NCBI RefSeq assembly: GCF_002571385.2
Contig: NW_019217815.1
Location: forward strand, 882,097-946,096
DNA: 64,000 nt
Source: Stylophora pistillata
Taxonomy: Eukaryota
Direction of reading: 5' to 3'
Below, piece after piece: positions 62,516-62,827 of this stretch. Positions within the stretch are counted from its first letter, which is position 1. Every line of letters starts with the position of its first letter. The notes under the pieces were generated by a model. The model was given only the letters and a program-made list of their open reading frames with translations, was not told the DNA's origin and did no database searches. Position numbers and translations under genes: made by a program.

Positions 62516-62827
62516 TATCTTATTAACCAAGTGCGAGGGCCGTACTGGGAGAATATCGGCCCGAGGTCTTGACAGTACGGACCGAGCGCAGCGAGGTCCG
62601 TACAAAAAAGACCGAGGGCCGATATTCTTCCAGTACGGTCCCGAGCAAGCTTGGTTAATAAGAGATTTATTATACGACTGAAGTTCAAAGGGACACAAGT
62701 GCGGTATCATTCGGGACCATTCGGGACAGTGCCCGGTCCAATACTGAGAGAATATTGACCGGCAATAGAGCATTTTGATTGGTTGATTTTAGTTATTGGC
62801 CCTCTGACTGCCCGAGTCGTGTAATAA
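62516..62827. mobile_element. Hairpin element plus TTATTATACGACT/AGTCGTGTAATAA-bounded segment
   Basis: Arms CTTATTAACCAAG...CTTGGTTAATAAG. Apex GTACGGACC-GA-GC-GCA-GC-GA-GGTCCGTAC at 62575-62603. Second module at 62667-62827 contains ATTGG motifs. Confidence 0.75.

Follow-up and report, generated by a model that had tools for sequence, protein, structure and literature searches.

How short repeats that differ in sequence come to carry the same hairpin apex, and which enzyme mobilises them, is the question raised by this locus of the coral Stylophora pistillata. The window analysed, a stretch of 64,000 nt from contig NW_019217815.1, had been described in an earlier note as containing five sequence-unrelated hairpin elements with an apex of the form stem-GA-short stem-loop-GA-stem, suggesting a shared mobiliser of single-stranded or cruciform DNA, either a Crypton-like tyrosine recombinase (YR) or an HUH nuclease. 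All five apex strings are indeed present (Table 1), and all five elements are multi-copy (2390, 177, 324, 829 and 2332 first-look candidates). Read along the strand carrying the GA dinucleotides (the GA strand), the five families present the same order, with a short leader, a terminal hairpin with arms a..a', and a module within inverted repeats b..b'. In the consensuses, built from 25-30 copies each, this module contains a CCAAT word in every family; the earlier note had described it for three elements, and the 31.5-kb element has one too. The families are not wholly unrelated, as the 61.1-kb and 17.2-kb families have terminal letters in common. Decay has altered the window copies with the CAAT loop at 31512 and with the apex at 17338; the apex of the family reads GA-ATCGC-GAA-GCGAT-GA for the former and GA-GGC-GCA-GCC-GA for the latter. 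The apex at 2889 is inverted relative to its own family, whose ladder of three GA/GA pairs lies on the opposite strand.

Table 1. Coordinates of the hairpin elements and other features in the 64,000-nt window.
Feature	Position	Strand	Remark
Non-autonomous Crypton element (62.5-kb family), 315 bp	62513..62827	+ (GA strand = +)	Internal deletion of a 2.4-kb YR-encoding parent
7-nt leader, family form ATATATC	62513..62519	+	Hairpin end only; putative crossover spacer
142-nt terminal hairpin, arms a/a', three tandem GA/GA pairs	62520..62661	+	Parent's 3' end relative to the YR gene
Apex: 9-bp stem, CGAG/CGAG tandem GA, GC-GCA-GC mini-hairpin	62575..62603	+	
Internal spacer GAGAT, 5 nt	62662..62666	+	In the fold, pairs with 4/5 leader bases
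Inverted repeat b, subterminal in parent	62667..62679	+	
Parent's first 147 bp: 5' end, likely promoter, CCAAT	62681..62827 (CCAAT 62776-62782)	-	Stops 9 bp before the YR ATG
3-nt microhomology at deletion joint	62681-62683		
Inverted repeat b'	62815..62827	+	Sharp 3' end of the GA strand
Second family, young (~97% identical copies): TT leader, 189-nt hairpin, module	61098..61483	+	
Second-family apex GA-GGC-GATA-GCC-GA	61178-61211	+	
Outer second-family copy, collapsed hairpin	60977..61579 (60977-61097 + 61484-61579)	+	The 61098 copy is inserted in its module
Third family, old and decayed copy; module ~2956-3108	2842..3108	+	Ends approximate
Fourth family, decayed copy; apex 17338-17350	17248..17553	+	Ends approximate
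Fifth family, decayed copy: hairpin 31461-31591, module ~31305-31460	31305..31595	- (GA strand = -)	
Common repeat containing a hammerhead-like word, copies inverted head to head	7544-7722 and 6700-6875		Appear to resemble Penelope-type ends
Inverted pairs of tRNA-like repeat copies	30810-31196 and 50489-50773		
One stop-free frame, 3,461 codons, coiled-coil-like	32745-43130	-	
Near-perfect tandem arrays, 50 and 71 nt	56314-56713 and 44602-45027		
Short inverted repeat between CCAATCAG/CTGATTGG	63665-63763		May be the module of another family

Parentage of the hairpin elements

The CCAAT module of the 62.5-kb element matches the sequence directly 5' of a DUF3504 gene. Among the 14 candidates retrieved by a search with that gene, both element ends enclose the YR gene at three (C29, C464 and C704), the 3' part of the YR continues into the hairpin at two further ones, and C344 presents the 5' end and the gene without the hairpin; at L212 and L215 there is one YR frame between the ends. 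The best parent copy measures 2,411 bp, of which the short element retains the first 147 bp and the last 169 bp, and the identity between the 62.5-kb family and its YR parent is 93-98% at both ends. The same deletion joint was found in 4/4 public runs, and public sequencing runs labelled coral also contain the element. The family is young, with ~800-2,400 copies in the 398-Mb assembly, and the strand at 62513-62827 folds with z = -11.6. The interval, which begins at 62513 and not at 62516 as first annotated, is almost certainly an internally deleted Crypton transposon; the Crypton-like option of the earlier note is confirmed for this deletion derivative of a DUF3504/YR element, and long YR-coding copies with the same hairpin, whose search it had proposed, do exist for this family.

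The parent YR frame matches DUF3504, and a 461-aa relative (91% identical) carries the R, K, HxxR, H and Y motifs, that is, the full catalytic set; the catalytic R-H-R-Y motifs GFRARDE, NHSVR, SGH and SAY are found in family copies and in P0002. The predicted structure of the YR (mean pLDDT 79.5) resembles QRICH1, Cre, lambda Int and Tn1549 Int, with QRICH1 as the top match of the fold search and Cre as the next, and no integron integrase among the matches listed. Every complete YR copy of the 62.5-kb family in the assembly is broken, and one copy, to which the DUF3504 match, the 461-aa relative and the predicted structure refer, is open for 352 codons, up to the contig end. YR-region contigs from RNA runs do not establish transcription. 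Several very short contigs (G000 C1491, C3014, C3385, C3087, C3397, C5418 and C4020) have strong phage-integrase matches and are possibly bacterial sequence in the assembly; no match to the element was found in phages.

The DUF3504 domain favours CryptonA over CryptonV, following the sections of PMC3212892 compared here. The CryptonA elements described there (Kojima and Jurka 2011) are similar to the coral element in having a single DUF3504 YR gene, a cnidarian host, abundant internally deleted derivatives and no target-site duplication (TSD). In contrast, the same sections describe animal Cryptons as lacking terminal repeats, with a circular-DNA model by analogy, and never mention a hairpin, a palindrome or a single strand, whereas the coral element ends in a long hairpin and has subterminal repeats that pair, a leader at one end only and an apex specific to one strand. 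The terminal repeats found here are thus a departure from the 2011 Crypton description, not from the enzyme class. Non-autonomous Crypton ends have also been described in vertebrates (Eulor5/Eulor6 and the salmon Crypton-N1_SSa; PMC5753468), but a hairpin goes unmentioned in the main text of that source, with which the comparison is by description only.

Crypton parentage is also supported for the 61.1-kb family: in L200, its ends lie on both sides of a YR gene, with an identity of 81-84% (81-90% when L207 is included). For the 2.9-, 17.2- and 31.5-kb families, no ends flanking a YR were found in 60 of the 91 DUF3504 loci or in 80 metagenome loci. The four other window repeats share the end design of the 62.5-kb element, with the terminal hairpin and the b/b' inverted repeats present in all five families, and are likely Cryptons too; for the five families taken together, we consider a Crypton parentage highly probable. 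The single shared mobiliser suggested earlier has to be replaced by several related recombinases. Crypton-type elements often have another of their kind inserted within them or at their ends (60977-61579; L017, L310, L326 and L120), and head-to-tail tandems were also seen (C730). In the 61.1-kb family, 6 of the best 41 places hold module-hairpin-module dimers (G000 C501, C196, C155, C29, C576 and C254; L321, L324, L326 and L329), in which the hairpin asymmetries are kept and the inverted module is joined without a leader; these dimers could be due to hairpin-primed synthesis or to recombination between identical outer arms.

Insertion footprint and target

Two empty sites, provided by copies lying within repeats with a known empty form, display neither target duplication nor loss, and the insert starts with the 7-nt leader at both of them. 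Judged from these two sites there is no TSD, and the ordinary TIR MITE with a fixed TSD was not encountered. At the window locus itself, no empty allele was recovered when contigs were aligned there. In a sample fetched by the module alone, the leader (at most one mismatch) is present at 25/26 located left ends and at 1/19 readable right ends, bearing in mind that 11/30 right flanks in this sample end in N and might conceal a leader; over all copies collected, the corresponding counts are 57/63 and 3/50. Tandem copies are joined as b'-leader-a, the joint that a circle would have.

The flanks prefer TA at -3/-2 (85% and 94%) and T at +8 (36/53), a pattern that forms a weak dyad resembling the element's own arms. 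Overall, the target is degenerate and AT-rich, (A)TAN^...TA, and many copies adjoin (AT)n. In this respect, the coral copies recall CryptonV, which the parts of PMC8869645 considered here present as target-specific YR transposons of cnidarians, although, in a comparison by description only, the degenerate coral target is not strictly a microsatellite.

Because two exchanges of a duplex circle predict a leader at either end, its presence at one end only suggests that one strand was transferred. From tyrosine-recombinase chemistry together with the one-sided leader, insertion appears to involve single-strand transfer, and the sequence data make a strand bias of the transfer probable. The footprint, at the sequence level, is of the integron type, with one strand transferred and a fixed spacer at one end. 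Moreover, the leader faces a 5-nt spacer in the fold, leaving two bases extra, and the 61.1-kb family likewise has two. In integrons, the attC site is a folded strand with unpaired extra bases, and an insertion within IntI, specific to this enzyme, reads extrahelical bases.

Grammar and variation of the hairpin apex

A strict motif, defined as an outer stem of at least 8/10 and a short stem with a C-GN(N)A loop, separated by GA on either side, was found at 2 sites in the window and at none in 100 dinucleotide shuffles. Forty random 10-kb loci contain 9 such sites, and 10 shuffles of them contain none. In an unbiased count of every 2x2 internal loop beneath a short stem, covering 60 of the 91 DUF3504 matches, GA/GA came out as the commonest loop, with 32 occurrences spread over 24 of the 60 loci and 8 for the next loop. 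By comparison, 40 random loci yielded 12 GA/GA loops, and 20 loci of other YRs yielded 2 (20 of the 94 matches of a PF00589 search, mostly other YRs; apex in 2 loci). The enrichment of the apex near YR genes is modest (24/60 vs 8/40 loci, p = 0.049), and part of it corresponds to separate nested insertions (L120).

The consensuses keep the GA/GNA apex, and its strand asymmetry is strong, as a G..A loop occurs on the GA strand in 38/46 GA/GA hairpins and the mirror T..C loop in 0/46. Inner stems are 2-5 bp long and of various sequences. In the families with GNA loops, a C-G pair closes the loop nearly always and the tandem lies within a Py-GA-Pu context, the GA/C-GNA-G/GA apex being found in over a dozen families. 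Both GCGNAGC hairpins and Py-GA-Pu tandems are stable DNA motifs according to the portions of PMC13037366 and PMC10085684 compared here. Across ten homologous hairpins, the 5' GA is invariant and the 3' GA is present in 9/10; the covariation proposed as a check in the earlier note was recovered for the outer stem, in which 6/10 pairs differ on both sides, a value equalled in 0/500 shuffles. The motif persists despite a CpG decay of 5-20% per site. Nearest-neighbour energies are nearly equal between the strands (-78.5 vs -71.9; -114.9 vs -113.1).

Of 16 apexes in 80 metagenome YR loci, 9 are antisense and located 361-709 nt downstream of the gene, with five kinds of inner stem-loop; an antisense apex is found in just 6/26 of the loci with at least 900 nt downstream. 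A separate, ungapped scan of metagenome loci for hairpin centres was overly strict and missed known hairpins. A noisy clustering of apexes showed extension downstream in 7/12 multi-copy clusters and none upstream past a hairpin arm. At L095 (oriented 4150-4600), L129, L405 and L383, the hairpin is located upstream of the YR and the GA strand is the sense strand; gene orientation within the module may vary while the polarity of the hairpin at the 5' end holds. Sense-strand hairpins 3' of YR genes were rejected as element ends, the one fully inspected case (L120) being a separate insertion. A reading of the apex as an RNA structure was also discarded: the loops belong to the GNA or GATA type and not to GNRA, the antisense strand of the YR gene is the one carrying GA in the 62.5-kb parent, and the RNA version of the mini-hairpin is far less stable.

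Among 779 genome-wide matches with perfect outer arms, complete inversion of the 11-nt apex is seen in 48, and the apical GA/GA is lost in 47, where the complement of the 5' GA stands in place of the 3' GA (53 rows with left GA and right TC, minus 6 rows from 3 symmetric sites); the mirror case, left TC with right GA, was observed 0 times in these matches. At the 47 polar-repair sites, the loop is unchanged in 31, inverted in 15 and unclear in 1, and other public runs show the same GA-to-TC change. The simplest cause is a nascent GA strand folding back on itself, which would be in-vivo evidence of that strand folding; repair of the folded TC strand (5'-arm) could give the same polarity, and the polar-repair copies may be non-independent. 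In total, the apex is inverted or corrected in ~12% of copies, and 6/30 of the youngest copies are apex-inverted; if such copies transposed, apex orientation is not essential. In 58 full hairpins, inversion is confined to the inner 11 nt and two single-base changes occur at one outer site. The outer mismatch blocks are never inverted in these hairpins, and flipping of the whole hairpin by the YR was accordingly rejected for the 62.5-kb family.

A proposed folded-strand substrate for recombination

Taken as a mechanism, it seems rather probable that the folded GA strand provides one core site, that the YR moves only the GA-bearing strand and that replication completes the insertion. Once single-stranded, the GA strand would stack its a/a' and b/b' pairs into a recombinase core site, to which the continuous strand would contribute a spacer of 5 nt and the junction of the two ends one of 7 nt. 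Cleavage by the YR after b' and before the leader would then close a single-strand dumbbell circle, which would exchange one strand with an AT-rich (A)TAN^...TA target, and replication would fix the insertion, as with integron cassettes and the CTX phage. In this scheme, the sheared GA pairs and the GNA cap would allow one strand to nucleate and hold the fold. The more specific proposal that folded ssDNA is the substrate of the YR is, on balance, plausible. As described in the parts of PMC9345347 compared here, the integron attC and CTX attP systems combine one YR strand exchange with replicative resolution and would give the same scars; the coral element differs in being eukaryotic and self-mobile, and its folded site would comprise both element ends. 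The same parts describe the SE elements, in which a YR also carries the spacer of one strand to a fixed end, but these have four genes and att sites without attC-like repeats, in contrast to the single gene and extensive self-pairing of the coral element.

The one-sided leader would be explained equally well by strand-biased recombination between duplex ends, either SE-like or through a Tn916-type circle with biased repair, where the cruciform hairpin would be an accessory, a primer or a shield. SEs circularise one strand by YRs without an attC-like fold, mini-hairpins sit at ssDNA priming sites and withstand nucleases, young apex-inverted copies exist, and the module-hairpin-module dimers hint at hairpin-primed synthesis. 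Nevertheless, duplex ends alone leave unexplained the gapless a/a'-b/b' stacking and the two extra leader bases, found in both young families, and we consider this possibility rather unlikely, if still worth weighing. The classical Crypton scheme, quoted in the compared sections of PMC3212892, involves a double-stranded circle and two exchanges, so that the hairpin would consist of duplex protein-binding sites and the GA/GNA motifs would be errors of palindrome replication. Duplex symmetry also makes inverted repeats covary, and template-switch products are common at the apex; however, with two exchanges the leader should turn up at either end, contrary to observation, the errors observed remove GA/GA and never create it, and the mirror loop never accompanies GA/GA (0/46). 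This scheme is therefore improbable here.

Still further from the data is mobilisation by an HUH enzyme (Helitron, Helentron or Replitron) or as a DDE MITE, which we regard as very improbable. Hairpins, tandem arrays and the missing TSD are HUH-like, and the short terminal TTATTA/TAATAA repeats are MITE-like, but the parent's ends enclose a YR gene, which makes the HUH option of the earlier note unneeded and an HUH or DDE origin would be conceivable just for the three families without a YR link; the absence of a TSD and the asymmetric ends are also unlike a DDE MITE. Coral CMITEs, described as piggyBac-related MITEs, were ruled out.

The literature searches brought up no paper on this end structure, Repbase, Dfam and supplements being outside the comparison; the superfamily is known, and what is absent from that literature is the end architecture and the likely mechanism. 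Extending the folded-strand model to animal Cryptons in general, they could be the eukaryotic counterparts of integron cassettes, with the strand chosen by the CGAG tandem G-A and the C-GNA-G cap, and with polar repairs and dimers as in-vivo footprints of folding and self-priming; for us, the arguments on this broader idea are evenly balanced. The apex grammar offers a practical signature to classify many unlabelled animal hairpin repeats. In addition, the locus supplies a defined 315-bp substrate together with its recombinase, for which a nearly identical relative of full length exists; with the ends exact and a consensus for the target, how Cryptons move becomes directly testable. If the folded-strand model is true, the enzyme would be a eukaryotic tyrosine recombinase guided by DNA structure, and its insertion would be homology-free, scar-free and single-stranded.
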